Source: a virus. Taken from it: a stretch of DNA of 47,250 bases. The DNA lies in UHGV virus genome UHGV-1363746; one strand, written 5' to 3'. This document shows positions 21,222-39,032 of this stretch, piece after piece. Numbering within the stretch: position 1 is the stretch's first letter; every line of letters starts with the position of its first letter. The notes under the pieces were generated by a model. The model was not told the origin of the DNA. It searched no databases and saw nothing but the letters and a program-made list of their open reading frames with translations. A program made the translations under genes and the position numbers.

Positions 21222-21305
21222 TTATTGCGCCTCGTAAGAGTTAGTGATTGCCTTAATGCGACGACGATACCATTGCATGATGTGCTCGTTATGCCAGTTG
21301 CTCAT
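21222..21305 (-). CDS. 27-aa peptide
   Basis: Strong RBS AAGGAG. Product MSNWHNEHIMQWYRRRIKAITNSYEAQ. Confidence 0.25.
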   Translation of the reverse strand: MSNWHNEHIMQWYRRRIKAITNSYEAQ

Positions 21306-21309
21306 TCTG

Positions 21310-21405
21310 TTACTCCTTATAACCTGATTTAGAAACTGCCACTGCGATAATGACGAACGCCACGATAACCAGACTGGCGATAAGTTCGAATGCTGCGCCT
21401 GTCAT
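21310..21405 (-). CDS. 31-aa single-TM peptide
   Basis: ATGA overlap with the upstream gene. Product MTGAAFELIASLVIVAFVIIAVAVSKSGYKE. Confidence 0.25.
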   Translation of the reverse strand: MTGAAFELIASLVIVAFVIIAVAVSKSGYKE

Positions 21406-21548
21406 TTGCTTAACCCATACACTGAGATTAAAGCCTGCATTGCTGCGCTCCAGAATGCTTCTGCTGGAATGATGTTGTTTGTGCGCTCAACTGCAATGCG
21501 CACCATAGCCTGTGCATCTTCAAATTCTTCACGGTCTTTGATTTTCAT
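21402..21548 (-). CDS. 48-aa hypothetical protein, first gene of the leftward early operon
   Basis: Product MKIKDREEFEDAQAMVRIAVERTNNIIPAEAFWSAAMQALISVYGLSK, downstream of the promoter at 21579-21607. Confidence 0.35.
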   Translation of the reverse strand: MKIKDREEFEDAQAMVRIAVERTNNIIPAEAFWSAAMQALISVYGLSK

Positions 21549-21578
21549 ATCTTCACCATCGTTTGTTTCGATGATTTC

Positions 21579-21607
21579 AATCTACATCAGTTGCAATTCT
21601 ACGTCAA
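21579..21607 (-). promoter_or_regulatory. leftward early promoter TTGACG-N17-TAGATT
   Basis: Minus strand reads TTGACGtagaattgcaactgatgTAGATT. Confidence 0.55.
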
Positions 21608-21619
21608 CAGTGGCGCGTT

Positions 21620-21990
21620 AAAAACGTGCTCGTGGGGTAAATTTTTGCTCGTGGGGCAGGTCGTGGGGAAGGTCGGTTGCCCCACGATTTTCATCGCAAA
21701 TAATTGATTTTAATGTTTTTATTTTTCGTGGGTAAAAAGGGGCAGATTTCACACCCATCCCCTTATAAATATATTCAAATAATCCATTTGTTAATATTAT
21801 GTTAATTACTATCTATAATATGAATAATAATATTACCCATTAACCCAAATAATAATAATTTTATTATATTACATATACTTAGAGTAAGGTTTCGTGGGGA
21901 AGGTTGGTTGCCCCACGCCTTACCCACGTTACCCACGCGAGTCGTATTTGATGTTGCATGATTCAATACTTATGATATGATTCAATCATA
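21620..21990. other. putative origin of replication: iterons and hairpins flanking an AT-rich core
   Basis: At least 9 copies of CGTGGG(G) or its complement. Two 27-nt hairpins, cgtggggaaggtYggttgccccacg, at 21660-21687 and 21892-21918 bracket a core of about 130 bp with more than 80% AT (21760-21890). Two direct ATGATTCAAT repeats at 21958-21986. Confidence 0.5.
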
Positions 21991-22014
21991 ATTTGTTGCT
22001 ACTGGAGGATTTTG

Positions 22015-22232
22015 TGAAACTTGATAAGTACGGCAAAAAGAATGCAGCTCTTTCTGGGTTATCGGTGGTTTCAGTAGGGGAGACTGTGATGATTGACTCG
22101 AAGAGGTTTGGAGGCATTGCAAACCTGAGGAACGCATTAAACTACTTCATGCGCAGGAATGAAGGCATGAAATTCTCAACAAAGGTTGGATACCCTGATA
22201 AAGACATGGTTTACGTAAAAAGGATTTCATGA
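22015..22232 (+). CDS. hypothetical small protein (GTG start)
   Basis: GGAGG RBS 5 nt before the GTG. 72 aa. Confidence 0.35.
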
Positions 22233-23785
22233 TGATCACAGCGCAAGATATCTTCAATGAAGCAAGGGAATTAAAAGTATCTCCTGCTCGCGTCGCCTTC
22301 CATCATGGCATGACACCAAGCTCAAATATGTGGCTTGACATCAAGGAAGGTAAGGAGCGTGATGTAACGTACTCAGAAACAGAACTCACCAGTGAGAACC
22401 GGACTGATTTGCTGTCTCGTTATGCAATCGCTGCAGCTCGTGCCGTTCAGTTCCCAATAAATACATCGTTCATGCATTTGCTTGGTTGCGTAGCAAGCGC
22501 AATGACGAGAAACTTTAGCGTTGAGTATTACCATTCAGAACTTCCAGTTTCTCTTTACGTGGTTACTTCTCAGCCCCCATCGGCAGGGAAAACCGCTATC
22601 AACTCAATGCATATGAATCCGGTGAAGATTGAATATGACAACCTTTCCAAAAAGATGGAAAAGCAAATCATAAAAATAAATCTTCGCATCGAAGAGCTGA
22701 TGAAGGCATACAAAGAGGCCAGTAATCAGAATGCAAAGGCACTAATCGGAGATGATATTGCTCGTGAAAAGGAGAAGCTGGAAGAGCTTTATACGATTAC
22801 ATATCCACTTACTGACGCAACTCCAGAGGCTGTCCAGCATCAGGCAATCCATGAGGGTGGTTTTTTTAATCTGATAAGTGACGAGGCCAGCGTTCTTAAC
22901 ACATGTCTTGGCCTCTCTTACGGAAAGGAAGGTGGAAAGGCAAACGCCGAAGTCATCCTGAAGGGATGGGATGGTGGATTTATTGGTTCTGCCCGTGTTG
23001 GTCGTGGCGTTTCATCTGGTTACGTACTTGGAAACATAAGTGTGATTGCTCAGGATGAAAGTATTGATGCCATTCTTGCTGCTGGCGACAGGGGGAACGG
23101 TCTTTCTGAACGTTTCCTGATGTTGCGAGAGCAATCAATGCTTGGCTATCGCGAACACTGGGACATGGTTAATGACTGCCCTGTAAGCAAGCCAATGCCA
23201 GACAGCTTGAGGTCGGAATATGCAAGATTTATACATAATGTTGTGTCAGCAGAAAAAACAAGACTCACGCTTCACAACGATTCAGCAAGAATGATTGGCC
23301 TGTTACGAAATCAATGGGAGAAAAACTTCCTTCCCGGCGGTAAGTGGGATCACGTCCTTCTTCGTGGTGCGATGGGTAAAGCTGATAAGCAAATAATCCG
23401 TCTGGCAGCAATATTTCACGCTGCTGAAAACTGGTGCGATGGAGGGAAACGTTCAAAAATTATCGGTGAAAATGAAATTAGTCGCGCCATCAGTGTTTAT
23501 GACGCACTGACAAAAACATTCACCGACGCCGTTGAATCAAATGGGTATGCCGGTGAACGATCGGAGTTTGATGTTGTTGCCGAAAAGCTACGCTCTGCCG
23601 CTCAGAAAGGAAAAACAAACGTAACGGTGAAGTGGCTTTATGATTCACTTAAAAACGTGCGACCATTCAAGGGGATACCTAAAATTTATGACCGTCTCAG
23701 ATCAAGTGTATTGCCATCACTTGAAGAGGATGGTTACTGCGTATTTATCGGAAACACTGTTCACATAAATCCGAGGTTGAAATGA
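22229..23785 (+). CDS. putative replication initiation / primase-associated protein
   Basis: 518 aa, first large gene next to the ori-like region. The degenerate P-loop-like YVVTSQPPSAGKT was not verified. Confidence 0.3.
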   Translation: MMITAQDIFNEARELKVSPARVAFHHGMTPSSNMWLDIKEGKERDVTYSETELTSENRTDLLSRYAIAAARAVQFPINTSFMHLLGCVASAMTRNFSVEYYHSELPVSLYVVTSQPPSAGKTAINSMHMNPVKIEYDNLSKKMEKQIIKINLRIEELMKAYKEASNQNAKALIGDDIAREKEKLEELYTITYPLTDATPEAVQHQAIHEGGFFNLISDEASVLNTCLGLSYGKEGGKANAEVILKGWDGGFIGSARVGRGVSSGYVLGNISVIAQDESIDAILAAGDRGNGLSERFLMLREQSMLGYREHWDMVNDCPVSKPMPDSLRSEYARFIHNVVSAEKTRLTLHNDSARMIGLLRNQWEKNFLPGGKWDHVLLRGAMGKADKQIIRLAAIFHAAENWCDGGKRSKIIGENEISRAISVYDALTKTFTDAVESNGYAGERSEFDVVAEKLRSAAQKGKTNVTVKWLYDSLKNVRPFKGIPKIYDRLRSSVLPSLEEDGYCVFIGNTVHINPRLK

Positions 23786-23979
23786 TTCCAGAAGATGATT
23801 GGTATGATGTTGAATGGTTTGATTGCTATCTGTGGAGGCCGCAAATAGGAAGAAATGTTGTGGCATTAACTGTTGATGGTGAAAGAATTCACGCAATTTA
23901 TGATGGTAATAAATTTTTATCATCAAATGATTTGGTTGAAATAATTCGCGTTGTATATTGGTGTTATGAGGATGTTTGA
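23782..23979 (+). CDS. hypothetical protein
   Basis: 65-aa ORF. Confidence 0.4.
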   Translation: MIPEDDWYDVEWFDCYLWRPQIGRNVVALTVDGERIHAIYDGNKFLSSNDLVEIIRVVYWCYEDV

Positions 23980-24397
23980 AGTGAGCAAAACGCACGAACT
24001 AAAAATCTTACCTGAACACTTCTGGCCTGTAGTTACCGGACACAAGAAGGCGGAACTAAGAAAGAACGATCGTGATTTTAAGGTTGGAGACACGATTATT
24101 CTTTATGAGTGGAATGGAGACTACACGGGAGAGAGAACGGAGCGAACCATAGTTCACATTGCTGATGTCGGCGCTTACCTTCCTGGCTATGTTCTTCTTT
24201 CCCTTAATGAGATTGCTAACTGGAAGGATGCGCGTCTTTTCGACCCTAAAGATGGACAGGAGGTTGTTATTATTGATGCTGATCGCGTCAAGGTTACTGC
24301 CAAGTATGATGACTCAGGAATATACTGGTGTAATCACACTGGTAAGTCGCTGCGAAATGTAGCCTTCTGGACTGAAGCGCCAGAGTTCAAGGAATAA
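23966..24397 (+). CDS. ASCH-like DUF3850 protein
   Basis: HELKILPEHFWPVVTGHKKAELRKNDRDFKVGDTIILYEW matches the DUF3850/ASCH signature. Confidence 0.55.
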   Translation: MRMFEVSKTHELKILPEHFWPVVTGHKKAELRKNDRDFKVGDTIILYEWNGDYTGERTERTIVHIADVGAYLPGYVLLSLNEIANWKDARLFDPKDGQEVVIIDADRVKVTAKYDDSGIYWCNHTGKSLRNVAFWTEAPEFKE

Positions 24398-24427
24398 CAA
24401 AAACCCTCCGATTGGAGGGTTTCTTTT
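24398..24427. terminator. bidirectional rho-independent terminator
   Basis: aaaaaccctccgattggagggtttctttt, between convergent genes. Confidence 0.6.
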
Positions 24428-25379
24428 ATCTGATGACTGACATTTTCTCTATCAACTCGCCAGCGTCATAAATCTTTCTCCTGATTCTCTTCGCCATCCT
24501 GATTGTGTCAGCATCATCAGGCAGCATTACCGGAAGTCCTGCATTTTCTGCAGCGCAAAGTTCGTCAAATTTATAATTAACTATGCAGCGCAACCGTGCT
24601 TTCACATCATCGCTAACCGAGCGCACAACCTCCCACATGTTTTCTGGCGACCAGCAGCACCAGACATGAGCGCCAGTGAAGTAATGGCACTTCCACGCAT
24701 CGGCATAATCAGATACCAGGTAAATGAACTTTCCGTTATCTTCTCCGATAGGGCTTATCGCGCCGCGCGTGAGCTTTCCGTTGATAGCTGAGTCTTTGTT
24801 GTATCCTGCGCGGAAAAAAGCTCTGAATGAATCACCATCCATGCCAATGAATGCCACGTTGCACGGCTTCATTGTGTCAGCGCGCATCAACTCAACGGCA
24901 ATAAGCTCACCAGATTTCCCTCTGACGACGTTAACGTCGCAACCAATACCATTTATCAAACTCCACTCATTCATCGCGACACGCGTCGTTTTAGCTATGA
25001 TCGCGGCGACTTCCTGCTCGGTGATGAAGTCATCATTGTAATTTATCTTCGGCAGTTCCTTCCTGATTGCCTCCAGTTTTTCGCGCGGGTGCATGTTCAG
25101 GAATCCTCCCAGCGCCTCCAGTGCTTCGGGAAAACTCATGCCTGAGAGTTTCATCAGCCAGTTCATGCCGCTACCGGAACCGCACTGATTGCAGATTGCG
25201 CCGCCATCGCCTTTTGTTTCGAAGTTATCATCAAAACGATACCTGTCTTTGCCTGAGCATGACGGGCATGGCTGGTGCTTGCCATTGAAAACTCTGCTAT
25301 CCACATTGACGATAGACATGATGGCAGCTTGCCAATTTCCGAGCATTTTTGGCTCAATGTCTTTCCAGTCGTATCTCAT
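24426..25379 (-). CDS. DNA primase (zinc-ribbon plus Toprim-like)
   Basis: CPSCSGKDRYRF...CNQCGSGSG zinc ribbon, with an acidic Toprim-like YLVSDYADAW. Start at MRYDWKD. Confidence 0.5.
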   Translation of the reverse strand: MRYDWKDIEPKMLGNWQAAIMSIVNVDSRVFNGKHQPCPSCSGKDRYRFDDNFETKGDGGAICNQCGSGSGMNWLMKLSGMSFPEALEALGGFLNMHPREKLEAIRKELPKINYNDDFITEQEVAAIIAKTTRVAMNEWSLINGIGCDVNVVRGKSGELIAVELMRADTMKPCNVAFIGMDGDSFRAFFRAGYNKDSAINGKLTRGAISPIGEDNGKFIYLVSDYADAWKCHYFTGAHVWCCWSPENMWEVVRSVSDDVKARLRCIVNYKFDELCAAENAGLPVMLPDDADTIRMAKRIRRKIYDAGELIEKMSVIR

Positions 25380-25382
25380 AAA

Positions 25383-25417
25383 TTGACCCTTGATTGTTGG
25401 TGTAGATTGAGTATAAG
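25383..25417 (+). promoter_or_regulatory. rightward early promoter upstream of the helicase
   Basis: TTGACCcTTGATTgttggTGTAGATTgagTATAAG. Downstream leader TGACGTAGAAACATCAACAAAGG. Confidence 0.45.
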
Positions 25418-25454
25418 CTAACTGACGTAGAAACATCAACAAAGGTTAGTTGCT

Positions 25455-27368
25455 ATGACGCATAAAATAGACAAGATGATTTCAGAGATTGATATTAACT
25501 TGCTGAAATCCTATCTGGATACTGGTGATATCGAGCCAAGACCCTATCAGTGGTTGATATATAAGTTAACTGGTGATGTGATTCGTCATTATGTTGGCCC
25601 GAGTTATGTAACAGCAAGCGTCGGTAGCGGAAAGTCACTGATGATTGCCATGATAGCAAAGCGTTTTCAGGAAATGGGCTATTCAGGGATGATTTTATCA
25701 AGACAGGGCGAAATAGTGGAGCAAGATGCGGAAGAGCTATGGGCGCTTGGTGTTAGAAACTCACTATTCAGTGCTTCGTTGGGCAGGAAAAGTTCTACGT
25801 ACCCAATAATCTGTGGCTCCGAGGGTACCGTTGTAAATGCTTTGTTTGATAAAAAGGATGAGTCAGGGAATGTTATTGCAAAAGGTGCTCTTTCTGACTT
25901 TTGCCCGAGATTTCTGCTGATAGATGAAAATCATATGGTTAATGACATTGATGTTGTTAATGATGGTGATACGCAGTATGCAGTGATAATTAATGAGCTA
26001 ATGAAAAGGTGCAAAGATAAGCACGGCCATGAGTTGAGAATAATAGGTTATACAGGTTCACCGTTTCGCGGAACTACATCAATAAAAGGCGCTTTCTGGA
26101 AGAAAGAGATTATCAACATAGACACCAAGTACATGGTTGAAAACGGTTTTCTTGTGCCAACAATTTTTGGTCTTCATGATGTTGATAGTCTGCATTATGA
26201 CCTTTCAGATTTTCATGGTTCAGATGTTGATGGTACTCAGGACTTTACCGCCGAGCAGCTCAAGCAGATGCAGAAAGAAATTCTTGAGCAAGGTACGTTG
26301 ACGCAGAAAATCATGCTCAAGGTTATGGAATTGACTAAAAACAGGAACGGAGTGCTGATTACATGTGCTGGTAAAAAGCATTGTCAGGAGGCGGCAAAGT
26401 ATTTGCCTGAAGGAAGTTATTCAATAGTTACAGAAGATATGGGGTCAAAAGCCAGAAGGAAGGCTCTAAAAGATGCATACACCGGGCGCAAAAAATTCAC
26501 ATTCCAGATAGCCGCCCTTACCACTGGCGTAAATATACCGTTATGGGATACGAGCTGCATATTACGAAAAATAATGTCACTCACTCTTCTTGTCCAGTTG
26601 CTTGGTCGCGGAATGCGCCTGCTGAAGAAGGAGCAAATTGATGCCGGGTATCATAAAGAGGACCATCTGGTTCTTGATTTCTCAGGAACGATGTTTGAGC
26701 TTGGTCAGCTATATGAAGACCCAATCCTTGAAGAGGCTGAAGCGCAACGTTCAAAACGCAGTGGCGAACAGGTTCCGTGTCCTAAGTGCGGGACAATGAA
26801 CAGCCCATATGCGCGCCGTTGCATTGGCAAAGATGCACTATCTCCAGATGGTCGTTGCGAAGAGTTTTTCAGTTACATCCGTTGCGGTTTTGATAAGCAC
26901 GGAATCCGTATTTTTGATGATGGATGCGGCACTAAAAACGACCCGACTGCGCGCTATTGCCGACATTGCGATCATGTTTTGCGCGACCCGAATGCGACAC
27001 TGAATGAGCGCGCGTATACGGATAATGAGTGGGCTGAAGTTAAAGACTTCAAGATTGAATTAACGAAAGATGAAAAAGGTGTTGTTTATCGTTATTTCAT
27101 TATGAAGGAAAACGGGAGGGAAGGATGGGCTAATGAGGTCTTTTATCCTTTTGGGAGACAAGAGAAGTATCTGAAAAATCAGTTCAAGATTAAAGGTTTG
27201 TTAAATCATGTGTCAGACAGGAATCTAATTGATAACCTTATGAATTGCCACAACGCAAAAGCATTCATGGCGTTTACTGGCCTTATCCGCGCACCAAAGC
27301 GCATCACGCACCGGTTTAACGATAAAGGCCGAGACATAATCCACAGAAAAGATTTTACAGGAGAGTAG
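25455..27368 (+). CDS. SF2 DEXH-box helicase with C-terminal zinc ribbons
   Basis: Walker A VGSGKS, motif II LLIDENH, and CPKCG/CRHC zinc ribbons. Confidence 0.75.
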   Translation: MTHKIDKMISEIDINLLKSYLDTGDIEPRPYQWLIYKLTGDVIRHYVGPSYVTASVGSGKSLMIAMIAKRFQEMGYSGMILSRQGEIVEQDAEELWALGVRNSLFSASLGRKSSTYPIICGSEGTVVNALFDKKDESGNVIAKGALSDFCPRFLLIDENHMVNDIDVVNDGDTQYAVIINELMKRCKDKHGHELRIIGYTGSPFRGTTSIKGAFWKKEIINIDTKYMVENGFLVPTIFGLHDVDSLHYDLSDFHGSDVDGTQDFTAEQLKQMQKEILEQGTLTQKIMLKVMELTKNRNGVLITCAGKKHCQEAAKYLPEGSYSIVTEDMGSKARRKALKDAYTGRKKFTFQIAALTTGVNIPLWDTSCILRKIMSLTLLVQLLGRGMRLLKKEQIDAGYHKEDHLVLDFSGTMFELGQLYEDPILEEAEAQRSKRSGEQVPCPKCGTMNSPYARRCIGKDALSPDGRCEEFFSYIRCGFDKHGIRIFDDGCGTKNDPTARYCRHCDHVLRDPNATLNERAYTDNEWAEVKDFKIELTKDEKGVVYRYFIMKENGREGWANEVFYPFGRQEKYLKNQFKIKGLLNHVSDRNLIDNLMNCHNAKAFMAFTGLIRAPKRITHRFNDKGRDIIHRKDFTGE

Positions 27369-36654: not shown

Positions 36655-39032
36655 TATTCTGTTGCTCTCCTGTTGGTATTGTAATTTCTAGAAATGGCCT
36701 GCCCTATCGGGCCATTTTCCGAAATGTCACTAACAATAGTCTCAATTGTCACGCTGCCGTCACCATTATCTCTTGCGGTTGATGAGGTTGTTGCCCCGCT
36801 GCTGGTATTGATGACGTTATTATAAATAACGATACCACTACCACCTCCAGTCAGGTCTTTGTTGCTGATAACTGAGCCATCGTTACCGGGAATCATATAC
36901 TGGCGACCGTTGGAAGCCTGGAATATTTCAGGCAAGCCATTTTCGCCCACTTCGTACATACTTCCGGCACTAACAGGGCCACCATTTTTACGCTTGCCAG
37001 CAATACCCATCGCCAGTGCTCCGAGAACGGCACCTACCCCAATTGCAGCTGCCCCGCCGAATGATCCGATTGATGCTACGATTGCCGCAGGAGTCCATGC
37101 TGCGGTAGTGGTGGCTGCCGCCGCCGTCGATGCTGCTGTTGTGGTTGCTAATCCTGCCGTTTGCGCCGCCGTTGTGGTTGCCGTAGCAGCAACCTGCGCA
37201 GTTTGCCCCATAACAGCAGATTTAACCCACTGAACGCCCATTTCAACAAAGCTGTTTACCAGAGAGTTAAGTACCGTAGAGCCGAGGCTGCGCATAGCAT
37301 CCTGAACGCTCATTGTGCCTGTCAGTAATCCAGTGATGCTGTTTGATGCTGTGCTCATCGCTGAATCAAGCGCCGTGCCGAACAGTTGCGCGCCGAGGCT
37401 TTGTTGCTGCCACTCAGCCCACATGGCGTCCATTCGCTGCTGGCGATATTGTGCTTCTATTGCCGCGCGAGTCTGCTCAATCTCTGTGATTTTTTGCGGA
37501 TATGCTGCGGCGTAGGCGTCAAGGTCAGCCATACGTTGCTGGTATTCGCTATCAATGCCAGTCGTTGGCGACGCAATGGCGCGCAATCCCTGATATGATT
37601 TTTCTACGCGCTGCTTTTCCTTCTCCGCCGCTGCCTGTTCCTTCAGTGCATTCTTCTGGTCCCAAATCTGCGCAGCATACTCACCAGCCAGTTTTATCTG
37701 CTCCTGAGTGGCGGCCTTGCCAAGCGATTGCTGCGCGTTGAGGATTGCTTGCTCGCGGGAGAGTTCACTGGTGGATGTGGCATTGAGCATGGTTTGCTGG
37801 CGTAGTTTCTCCAGCTTTTCAGCTACTGACTCAGCTTGCCGCTCTTCGGCGCTTTTGCCCTTTCCTTTTCCTTTTTTGTCTTTTGTTGGTGCTTGTGCAA
37901 TCTTCAGGTGTTTTGTTGCTTCAGCCTGTTTTTTTGTCTGTTCGTAGCCTTCCGCCGATGCTTTAACGAATCGCTCAACCTGATCGTTATATTGCTTTTG
38001 CTTTTCAATATCGTCATCACCGAAAAGTGCGTCCACTCCCATTTGTGCCCATGCACCCGGATTTAACTTCGAGATAACTGTGGCGAGAGATAAAATCTTA
38101 TCGCTTGTGCTGGTTGATTTATCCCCGAGGAAATCAATGTATTTTGCCAGCTGGTCGATAATCTCTACTGCTGTTTTTGATGCACCAGTGGCATCGTTAA
38201 CGGCAACCACAAGTTTGGAGAATGAAACTTCAAGAGAACCAACTGCCTGATCCATTGTGCGAGGAAGTTTTTCGAATTCAGCATTAACGATGCTTGTCCT
38301 GTCCTGAATGGCATTCAGTGCATCTTCTGCTGTCAGTTTGCCATCGAGCATTCTGGCGCGAAGTTCACCCATTGAAATGCCAAGACCCGCCGCAATCTGG
38401 CGAGCAAGCTCAGGCATCTGCTCAAGGATTGAGTTAAATTCTTCTGCACGGATTGTGCCAGATGCGATTGACTGACCGAACTGGCGAAGTGCGTTAGCCA
38501 TTTCCTCAGTTGATGACCCGCCGATTCTACCTATTTTTTGCAGGGTATCTGTAAGGTTAAGAACCTGCGCATTTGTCGCGCCAGCCTCTTTCAGTGATGA
38601 CGTCAATGTTTCCCACAGCTTCGTGGTATCACTCAGGCTTGCGCCAGTTGTTGAGGCGATATTTGCCAGTGTGCTGAATGTTTCGTTTGCGGTTTTCGCG
38701 TCAGTTGACAGGCGAGCAATCCTTGCCTGAAGCTGAGTCATGTTATCGGCAACCTCAAGGAATCGCTTGCCCCATTCGATAATCAGTGACACGGATATTG
38801 CGCCAGCCAACATAGACATGCTGGTTTTAAGCCCTGAAGCTGCGCCGCCAGCATTCTTCATTCCGCTGCCAGCATTTCTGGCATTTTTATCCAGCTTGCC
38901 AAGCGCGCTTGTGGTTTTGTTGGTTGATGATTCAAGGTCATCTAAAGTCTTATTGGCTGTTGTCGCGCCAGCTTTCAGGCCTTTAACATCCATCCCGACT
39001 TCATAGACAATTCCGCCGACTTCTTCAGCCAT
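36654..39032 (-). CDS. tail tape measure protein
   Basis: 792 aa, extended coiled coil, C-terminal Gly/Ala-rich hydrophobic stretch. Confidence 0.8.

Follow-up and report, generated by a model that had tools for sequence, protein, structure and literature searches.

Where does replication start on the genome of a virulent enterobacterial siphovirus, and which protein would read that place? The question is raised by an intergenic locus of the virus genome UHGV-1363746, analyzed here as one stretch of 47,250 nt (“the window”, which always means this full stretch; coordinates count from its first letter), where short repeats crowd around an AT-rich core upstream of the gene for a 518-amino-acid (518-aa) protein of the DUF3987 helicase family. 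By its sequence, the phage belongs with the siphoviruses of the Macdonaldcampvirus/Skatevirus type and is a relative of Salmonella phage Vi II-E1: the region in question (2.8 kb) is 92–94% identical to siphoviruses of about 45–48 kb infecting Salmonella, E. coli, Shigella, and Klebsiella, among them Vi II-E1 itself (Macdonaldcampvirus), STGO-35-1, Escherichia phage C1, IME207, and the BASEL phages Bas78/79. We propose that a 330-bp element of this locus, at 21608–21937, is probably a phage replication origin of the self-loading initiator-helicase kind, that is, of the kind represented by Rep of the pathogenicity islands of Staphylococcus aureus (SaPIs) and by the alpha protein of phage P4. Within the searchable literature, no origin has been described for the Macdonaldcampvirus/Skatevirus group or for any DUF3987 helicase, and the element would be the first proposed for this protein family and for this phage group; the kind of origin, one served by a self-loading winged-helix helicase, is already known.

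Repeats in mirror image around an AT-rich core

An initial annotation, made from the sequence alone, had read the locus as a set of iterons with a DNA-unwinding element, to be served by the 518-aa protein, and had reported at least nine CGTGGG(G)/CCCCACG repeats. The count holds: there are exactly nine copies of CGTGGG in 21631–21937 (307 bp), out of 18 in the whole window, and about 0.1–0.3 would be expected there. The shorter motif GTGGG is found nine times in 21608–21950 (343 bp) against 0.31 expected from the remaining window, and when matches of the TGGGG/GTGGG type are counted in sliding windows of 350 bp, they reach 15 at the element and at most four anywhere else. The orientation of the copies is ordered as well. 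The left cluster reads [> > > <], i.e., + + + −, and the right cluster reads [> < < <], i.e., + − − −, so that one is the mirror image of the other, with an additional inner copy on the + strand (positions in Table 1). One expects of an origin of the SaPI Rep kind at least six short repeats clustered far above chance and a central AT-rich region with at least two repeats on each side in opposed orientations; both features are present in the element.

The center of the array had been described as a core of about 130 bp with more than 80% AT, bracketed by hairpins, and it is indeed 125 bp long with 84.8% AT. No other 130-bp stretch of the window is as rich in AT, the runner-up reaching 70%, and the right-hand part of the core (21848–21888, 41 bp) rises to 88%. 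The suggestion that the core is an unwinding element fits this extreme composition, but the core is not mere filler: no other part of the element is as well conserved, the core being nearly invariant among relatives whose helicase is 87% identical, with conserved blocks such as CTATAATATGAATAATAATAT, TACCCATTAACCCAA, and TTATTATATTACATATACTTAG, and it carries promoter-like sites.

These comparisons rest on an alignment of 24 distinct versions of the element, namely that of the window, nine loci whose helicase is 99–100% identical, and 14 Klebsiella-type loci (87–88%). The positions and orientations of the repeats are kept throughout. Their flanks drift from CGTGGGG to TTGGGG or CTGGGG, so that the conserved core of the repeat is TGGGG(N)A (or T(N)CCCCA), and the CGTGGG unit of the initial annotation, although present in the window, is not what the relatives have in common. 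Degenerate copies are also maintained. Among the inner repeats, ATCCCCTT is conserved throughout the related loci, next to further degenerate copies CACCCATCCCC at 21752–21762; the two copies inside the core are kept as TACCC(C)ATTA(A/C)CCCAA in relatives and in the more distant locus L037. The GenBank record of Vi II-E1 labels both inverted repeats only as “repeat of sequence GTGGGGCAACCAACCTGCCCCACGA”, and a full-text literature search, which did not extend to the 2008 phage E1 paper (Pickard et al.), returned nothing for the repeat sequence.

The limits of the element come from the mosaicism of these genomes. Over 100 Salmonella phages, Skate and seszw among them, match the window up to 21607 and then diverge, which places a left junction at 21607/21608 with respect to Skate; loci L004 and L005 keep 21543–21935 together with the helicase gene, while 21935–22228, with its small open reading frame (ORF) and promoter, is replaced, which places a right junction at 21934/21935. 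With mosaic junctions at both edges, the element is, therefore, a discrete unit at 21608–21937, and the limits of 21620–21990 drawn initially have to be given up. This correction also concerns two direct ATGATTCAAT repeats that had been counted as part of the origin. They exist, at 21958 and 21977, but they lie beyond the right junction, overlap with a sigma-70-like promoter, and are confined to loci whose small gene is of the 72-aa type; by this distribution, they belong to the promoter cassette of the small gene, outside the origin. As for coding capacity, no ORF within the element is conserved among relatives, and a 46-aa ORF (21618–21758, − strand) is intact only in the closest of them and absent or different in the others. 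Some records call small − strand ORFs at 21618–21758 and 21802–21966 as hypothetical proteins (e.g., Bas79_0081 and Bas79_0082); as they are not conserved in relatives, the small ORFs annotated within the element are probably annotation artifacts.

Each cluster contains one inverted pair, made of a 7–8-bp inverted repeat around an 11-nt spacer. The geometry GGGG-N11-CCCC is found in most related loci; N9–N10 occurs in some Klebsiella-group and more distant copies, with N10 in some left-hand pairs of the Klebsiella group. These pairs had been presented as two 27-nt perfect hairpins, of which the inverted repeats are real and the perfection is not, the arms being limited to 7–8 bp. It could nevertheless be asked whether they act as structures, be it a cruciform, a hairpin, or an RNA terminator, attenuator, or processing site, with the single copies of the motif being incidental. 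Folded as single-stranded DNA, they reach −8.6 (left) and −7.5 kcal/mol (right), modestly better than shuffled sequences (z-scores of −3.3 and −2.1), a run of T follows the left repeat in many relatives, and the position just inside GGGG/CCCC is complementary in 29 of 43 unique inverted pairs, where 16 would be expected. At that same inner position, however, nine of the 43 pairs have an A/G mismatch, both window copies included, and pairing beyond TGGGG/CCCCA is often broken; the stem is only 7–8 bp long for a loop of 11 nt; several relatives do without the T-run; no transcription unit on the + strand lies upstream that would need a terminator at 21687; and the motif recurs as single, unpaired copies in a fixed arrangement. 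A terminator scan calls neither inverted repeat, passing over them because of their 11-nt loops, and Rfam returns no match for the element at E ≤ 1, so that the repeats qualify neither as terminators nor as known structured RNAs. We, thus, hold a role as structures to be very improbable. The mismatches at the inner position, present in the window itself, rather suggest that the inverted pairs are symmetric protein sites and not an obligatory stem. A reading built on strict base-pair co-variation was dropped, as there is only a partial symmetry bias and the window copies are themselves mismatched. Nor are iterons embedded in stem-loops the unusual feature that they had been taken for: pairing outside TGGGG/CCCCA is not strictly kept, and inverted iteron pairs are known from SaPI origins.

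The DUF3987 helicase and its linkage to the repeats

If the repeats are protein sites, the first candidate to read them is the 518-aa protein. It matches the Pfam family DUF3987 (PF13148) with E = 7e-35 (121 bits for a cut-off of 27) over profile positions 6–356 of 364, as well as phrog_2373 (“DNA helicase”) among the PHROGs, and its Walker A (G120-K121(-S122)) and Walker B (E219) residues do not vary across 46 homologues. In the AlphaFold model obtained with a homologue alignment (pLDDT 90, pTM 0.85), residues 443–518 form a C-terminal domain of the order H-S-H-H-S-S, which is a winged-helix pattern. Compared with the PDB by Foldseek, the model finds MCM subunits at ranks 1–12 (E of 7e-5 to 9e-3, probability of 0.97–1.00) and at most later ranks too, with TM-scores of only about 0.35 owing to the multi-domain arrangement; SaPI5 PriRep is a weak match (rank 46, E = 0.1). 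The model, a confident one, is that of an MCM-like AAA+ ATPase ending in a winged helix, and the profile match, the Walker motifs, and the MCM-related AAA+ fold by which a DUF3987 helicase of superfamily 6 (SF6) is recognized are all found. Model and family match agree with the placement of DUF3987 among the SF6 (MCM-like) replicative helicases that have a winged helix-turn-helix at the C-terminus (Kazlauskas et al. 2016, PMC4889955) and with the activity of a distant PriCT-DUF3987 protein (AgaPH), an ATP-dependent 5′→3′ helicase whose Walker motifs are required for activity (PMC11724360). An adjacent gene for a hexameric-type ATPase/helicase with a winged helix, here a predicted one, is a further feature expected of an origin of the SaPI Rep kind. 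The initial annotation had placed the element upstream of the replication genes, and the 72-aa ORF, the 518-aa protein, the primase, and the SNF2-type helicase are found as described.

Is this vicinity more than a coincidence? Our protein search reached DUF3987 homologues down to about 30% identity, and we then inspected their genomic contexts. A [>>><]-AT-[><<<] layout with a GGGG core stands beside DUF3987 helicases that are 87, 62, 49, 42, and 36% identical to that of the window. At 62% identity (L036:240-570), the repeats are of the TGGGGT form, with a pair TTGGGG-N10-CCCCAA followed by two more inverted copies, and the AT core has inner repeat pairs; at 49% (Pectobacterium phage Ymer, L035:120-240), an AT stretch is followed by GTGGGGAAC...CCCCAC and then by GTTCCCCAC twice; at 42% (L037:5090-5450), the layout is found downstream of the primase-helicase pair, after a terminator and between co-oriented genes; at 36% (Aeromonas phage Avpd1, L034:790-1100), repeats of the TTGGGG type and an AT core come before GGGGAAGTTGGTTCCCC and two CCCC copies, and four small ORFs separate the element from the helicase gene. 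Being found beside the DUF3987 helicase in differing gene orders, the element follows the helicase gene.

The T1-like Escherichia phage aalborv (L038), with a helicase that is 35% identical, was searched over its whole genome and does not have the GGGG architecture anywhere. Several copies of ATCACCAC/CCACCAC are located at 37040-37240 of this locus beside a 100-bp AT stretch, in a large divergent spacer lying some 4 kb upstream of the helicase gene, and are not clearly mirror-symmetric; this spacer might be an equivalent element with a different repeat.

An exchange of cassettes gives another view of the same linkage, as repeats and initiator are expected to change together in an origin of the SaPI Rep kind. 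Skate replaces the segment corresponding to 21608–24392 of the window, homology resuming at the terminator that separates the ASCH ORF from the primase gene, and the same replaced cassette is found in more than 100 Salmonella phages. In the slot of the 518-aa protein, Skate has a 495-aa helicase-like protein, which gives no BLAST match to the 518-aa protein and an hhalign probability of 2%; it has no match in Pfam or NCBIfam or among PDB sequences, and it matches the helicase half of primase-helicase PHROGs. The repeats have changed too, being TTATCCC in Skate: of the 19 TATCC motifs of this 7.2-kb locus, 10 fall within a 458-bp spacer, where TTATCC(C) is arranged as four copies on the left and three followed by three inverted ones on the right, around a core of 83% AT. 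Repeats and candidate initiator have, thus, changed together, while part of the AT core, including TACATATACTTAG, is common to Skate and the window. The small ORF that precedes the helicase gene behaves otherwise. At least three unrelated small ORFs (one of them AP2-like) occur in phages that have the same repeats and a 99% identical DUF3987 helicase; since the small ORF varies while the repeats stay constant, the repeats track the helicase-type protein. The small upstream ORF was, for the same reason, rejected as a reader of the repeats.

The linkage to the helicase gene also bears on a quite different proposal, in which the element would be a packaging site or a genome end, with the repeats as small-terminase sites, or else a mere recombination hotspot at module boundaries. 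Some records do start or end inside the core, at about window 21734–21872 (Akira (MK599416), the Klebsiella phages ZC2, ZCKP8, and ZCKp20p, and the IMG/VR contigs L013 and L024), and the mosaic junctions fall exactly at both edges of the element. Across distant phages, however, the element accompanies the helicase gene and not the terminase genes. A PhageTerm analysis reported headful packaging with partial circular permutation for STGO-35-1 (PMC8954984), whose record starts elsewhere, and the start and end of the ZCKP8 record are at adjacent window positions (about 21867 and 21872), so that no terminal repeat is evident. The breaks inside the core are most likely assembly-driven, or an arbitrary opening of the record in a low-complexity AT stretch, rather than a physical end. 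Given headful packaging in a close relative and a record break without sign of a terminal repeat, a genome terminus or pac site was rejected, and the proposal as such is the least probable of those weighed here.

Replication origin or transcription control

Promoters raise a more serious question. The element could be a control region for early transcription only, the core being made of strong host-polymerase promoters and the GGGG repeats being operators, with replication starting elsewhere; a regulator, possibly the winged helix of the helicase acting as a repressor, could then loop the DNA between the two clusters to shut the early genes. The element lies between divergent gene blocks, genes are found to its right in all relatives, and the core is conserved in sequence and not in composition alone. 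Sigma-70-like promoter matches number eight in 21300–22300, where 3.4 are expected. One of them, in the core (21791–21819), has a perfect TATAAT within a −10 block, CTATAATATGAATAATAATAT, that is almost invariant in the 24 sequences, and it points toward the right cluster and the helicase gene; another (21748–21775) has the CACCCATCCCC repeat copies in its spacer. On the other hand, the repeats are swapped with the helicase-type protein and not with any recognizable transcription factor. No regulator-like gene is constantly linked to the element, the small ORFs being variable and the genes downstream of the helicase being different in L036 and L037, and the outer promoters, P_L and P_R, are outside the repeat clusters. 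A mirror array of at least eight sites around the most AT-rich 125 bp is, moreover, a textbook origin layout and matches that of SaPI origins. We consider a role restricted to transcription control unlikely, though it has to be kept in mind.

Other signals commonly found at origins were looked for. No exact DnaA box (TTWTNCACA) is present in the element, where matches with one mismatch occur at 21729 and 21819 only; such one-mismatch boxes number 90 window-wide against 107 expected, which is within chance. A DnaA-dependent (oriC-like) origin was rejected, as DnaA boxes do not exceed chance. The cumulative GC skew of the window has its minimum at 21–22 kb, which is weak evidence for an origin because gene orientation switches at the same place. 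The only exact match of the window to the consensus of the integration host factor (IHF) is beside the left inverted pair, in a sequence of 47 kb where about three matches would be expected anywhere; it is retained in the closest relatives and absent from the Klebsiella-phage group, so it is at best an optional accessory site.

Several points have to be held against the proposed origin. All of its support is comparative. The element is located between divergent transcription units, with several sigma-70-like promoter matches in a core that is more conserved than a pure unwinding element requires, which leaves room for a mainly transcriptional role; genes follow the element on the right in every relative inspected, L037 included, and promoter function would account for part of this synteny. 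T1-like phages (Drexlerviridae), with helicases that are 35–39% identical, have no GGGG cluster beside the helicase gene. Between groups with differing repeat flanks, the winged-helix domain has not diverged more than the remainder of the protein, so no fine-scale co-variation of specificity is seen within the DUF3987 group. Lastly, the DUF3987 helicase that has been characterized has a 5′→3′ polarity (PMC11724360), opposite to that of MCM and unlike that of SaPI Rep, and the geometry of loading is, therefore, not simply transferable from these two. Taken as a whole, the initial idea of an iteron and unwinding-element origin served by the 518-aa protein is supported in its layout, in its helicase linkage, and in the fold of the protein, and fails for the ATGATTCAAT repeats and the stem-loops.

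Known systems help to see what such an origin would be. In dyad-symmetric origins such as those of archaea (inverted origin recognition box (ORB) elements, MCM) and the core origins of SV40 and papillomaviruses, short G-rich elements flank an AT-rich region, an arrangement thought to place two AAA+ hexameric helicases in opposite orientation. The element has similar dyad arrays of short G-rich elements around an AT region, and MCM is the best structural match of its candidate initiator. In archaea, a separate Orc1/Cdc6 protein reads the ORBs and loads MCM, whereas none is evident here and the helicase's winged helix is the candidate to read the repeats; in SV40 T antigen and papillomavirus E1, the origin-binding domain is a different one. 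The alpha protein of P4 combines a primase, an SF3 helicase, and a C-terminal winged-helix origin-binding domain, and its short repeats, TGTTCACC, are found in both orientations. Helicase activity and origin recognition by a winged helix are, thus, united in one phage protein, as we propose here; but the SF3 helicase of alpha is fused to its primase, whereas the DnaG-type primase has a gene of its own here, and P4 needs a second, distant repeat region (crr) and lacks clusters in mirror image on both sides of a single AT core. Iteron origins of the lambda type and of plasmids (O, RepA, or pi with a helicase loader) share with the element the clustering of iterons beside an AT-rich unwinding region and the exchange of origin and initiator as a module. 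Their iterons are about 19–22 bp long, in direct repeats on one side of the AT region, compared with about 7 bp in mirror symmetry here; their reader is a non-helicase initiator recruiting host DnaB, while the element is paired with a phage helicase; and the lambda ori is inside the O gene, whereas the element is intergenic and without DnaA boxes.

SaPI origins provide the model for the mechanism outlined below. SaPI Rep helicases bind iterons of 5–6 nt via their C-terminal winged helix, at origins where 6–12 iterons surround an AT-rich center, two or more on each side and in opposed directions (PMC9371898), where two hexamers are thought to self-load (PMC9371898, PMC7581432). The element resembles them in its short iterons (5–7 nt), forming two groups around an AT-rich center with opposed copies on each side, and in adjoining the helicase gene; the SaPI helicase (Rep/PriRep) is an AAA+ hexamer whose C-terminal winged helix reads the iterons, and a counterpart is predicted here; origins and helicases are exchanged as matched pairs, as in SaPIs (PMC9371898, PMC7581432). 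It differs in the family of its helicase (DUF3987, with MCM as the best structural match), in its position upstream of the gene and between divergent promoters (downstream in L037), in its carrier, which is a virulent enterobacterial siphovirus and not a satellite, and in its core, which is strongly conserved in sequence and has promoter-like sites. Binding and melting have been demonstrated for SaPIs; the element is known from sequence comparison.

On the analogy of SaPI Rep origins, the 518-aa protein would bind TGGGG(N)A through its winged helix, each group of four sites would nucleate one helicase ring, the two rings having opposite orientations, and the AT core would melt, most likely in 21848–21888. 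The two rings would then move apart, and the separate DnaG-type primase would be recruited for synthesis to start both ways. In a more speculative vein, host RNA polymerase starting from the core sites (21748–21775 and 21791–21819) could transcribe through the unwinding element, and this transcription could aid opening or give the first primer, in the manner of the T7 and T4 origins and of lambda ori; the helicase could also dampen the core promoters through the same repeats. That these promoters make the element double as an early control region may be so, and is the least certain part of the proposal.

A bolder version can be put forward, as a tentative one that we regard as possible but rather doubtful. 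The element would be the first recognizable DUF3987 origin in bacterial viruses, at which the winged helix of the helicase reads the mirror array of TGGGG sites and the protein loads itself as two opposed rings around the conserved AT core with its promoters, without a separate initiator or loader, the core (TACATATACTTAG and adjacent blocks) serving as a shared socket. If the core is a socket for unrelated helicase cassettes (the Skate type with its TTATCCC repeats being the other), a common factor acting on the core is implied. Such an origin would be the counterpart, in a bacterial virus, of MCM double-hexamer loading without the origin recognition complex (ORC).

The core block TACATATACTTAG (window 21868–21882) is identical in Skate (L031:2528-2543), despite unrelated repeats and an unrelated helicase-type protein, and a related ...TTATTATATAT...ACTTGAG is present in L037. 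TACATATACTTAG may be read by a common factor, which could be the shared DnaG-type primase, host RNA polymerase, or a host factor.

Macdonaldcampvirus/Skatevirus phages are widely used for the biocontrol and typing of Salmonella, E. coli, and Klebsiella. A defined 330-bp element and its candidate initiator are a directly testable pair and, if confirmed, would offer a simple E. coli-based model for an MCM-like helicase that opens an origin without a separate initiator; two unrelated helicase/repeat cassettes on one AT core amount to a natural specificity experiment. In practical terms, the region should not be disrupted in phage engineering, and one has to keep in mind that current annotations put spurious small ORFs there.

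Neighboring genes and exchangeable cassettes

The features of the element and its surroundings are collected in Table 1.

Table 1. Coordinates of the candidate origin element, its repeats and promoter-like sites, and the neighboring genes.
Feature	Position	Strand	Sequence or remark
Leftward promoter-like site	21579..21607	−	TTGACG 21607-21602, 17-nt spacer, TAGATT 21584-21579
Whole candidate origin element	21608..21937		Left cluster, AT core, right cluster; 330 bp, non-coding
CGTGGG, + strand copies	21631, 21650, 21662, 21727, 21893	+	First three in left cluster, 21727 inner copy, 21893 in right cluster
CGTGGG, − strand copies	21681, 21912, 21923, 21932	−	21681 in left cluster, others in right cluster
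Iteron L1	21631..21637	+	CGTGGGG; position kept in 23 related loci
Iteron L2	21650..21656	+	CGTGGGG; from motif count and alignment of relatives
Left inverted pair, L3/L4	21661..21687	+/−	TCGTGGGG-N11-CCCCACGA; full sequence TCGTGGGGAAGGTCGGTTGCCCCACGA
IHF consensus match	21697..21709	−	WATCAANNNNTTR
Inner degenerate repeats	21727..21762		CGTGGGT, AGGGGCA on +; CACCCA, TCCCC on −; overlap promoter-like site 21748-21775
Promoter-like site overlapping inner repeats	21748..21775		CACCCATCCCC copies in spacer
AT-rich core, candidate DNA-unwinding element	21764..21888		125 bp, 84.8% AT
Promoter-like site in core	21791..21819	+	TTAATA, 17-nt spacer, TATAAT; 10/12 positions match
Two degenerate iteron-like copies inside core	21833..21847	−	TTACCCA 21833-21839, TTAACCCA 21840-21847
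Right inverted pair, R1/R2	about 21892..21918	+/−	CGTGGGG-N11-CCCCACG
Iteron R3	21923..21928	−	CCCACG on + strand; from motif count
Iteron R4	21932..21937	−	CCCACG on + strand; last base group before right mosaic junction
Promoter-like site with two ATGATTCAAT repeats	21948..21986	+	TTGATG/TTGCAT, then TATGAT; 72-aa gene cassette
72-aa ORF, exchangeable small-gene cassette	22014..22232	+	GTG start; replaced by unrelated ORFs in relatives
DUF3987 (SF6, MCM-like) helicase, candidate initiator	22229..23785	+	518 aa; C-terminal winged helix, residues 443-518 (predicted)
DnaG-type primase	24426-25442	−	
SNF2-type helicase	25455-27368		

To the left of the element are small leftward genes, the first of which is a 48-aa ORF starting at 21548. 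It is served by the leftward promoter-like site just outside the element, which is kept in all relatives as well as in the more than 100 phages with the alternative cassette.

To the right, the 72-aa ORF has no match in Pfam, PHROG, or NCBIfam. Its slot (21935–22228) is occupied in near-identical phages by at least three unrelated types of small ORFs (72-aa, 91-aa AP2-like, and 67–78-aa types), as compared in L004, L005, L012, and L018 upstream of the helicase gene; the 72-aa type, at least, carries its own promoter region, and several of these ORFs share a similar hydrophobic-basic end (...VKRIS, ...IIKRIS, ...ILRVQ).

The closest database match to the region, OR544125.1 (93.8% identity, with the query covered to 100%), bears the name “Acinetobacter phage vB_AbaM_AB4P2” and gives A. 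baumannii as its host, a label that looks doubtful because every other relative infects Enterobacteriaceae.

Between the gene of the 518-aa protein and that of the primase are a 65-aa ORF and then an ORF with an ASCH domain. The latter (23951–24397; DUF3850/ASCH, RNA-binding-like) belongs to the exchangeable cassette and is missing in L036 and Skate. It converges with the primase gene on a 36-bp palindrome (24394–24429), which aligns with Skate in either orientation, carries the annotation of a bidirectional terminator in that phage, and forms the right edge of the exchangeable helicase cassette. Further on, Vi II-E1-type phages and Skate have an insertion of about 1.1 kb between the genes for the primase and the SNF2-type helicase (L005:6111-7195, L001:6864-7868, and L031:6299 onward), which the window is without (at 25459); the annotations of Vi II-E1 and Skate call it an HNH homing endonuclease, and such a presence/absence polymorphism is typical of homing.

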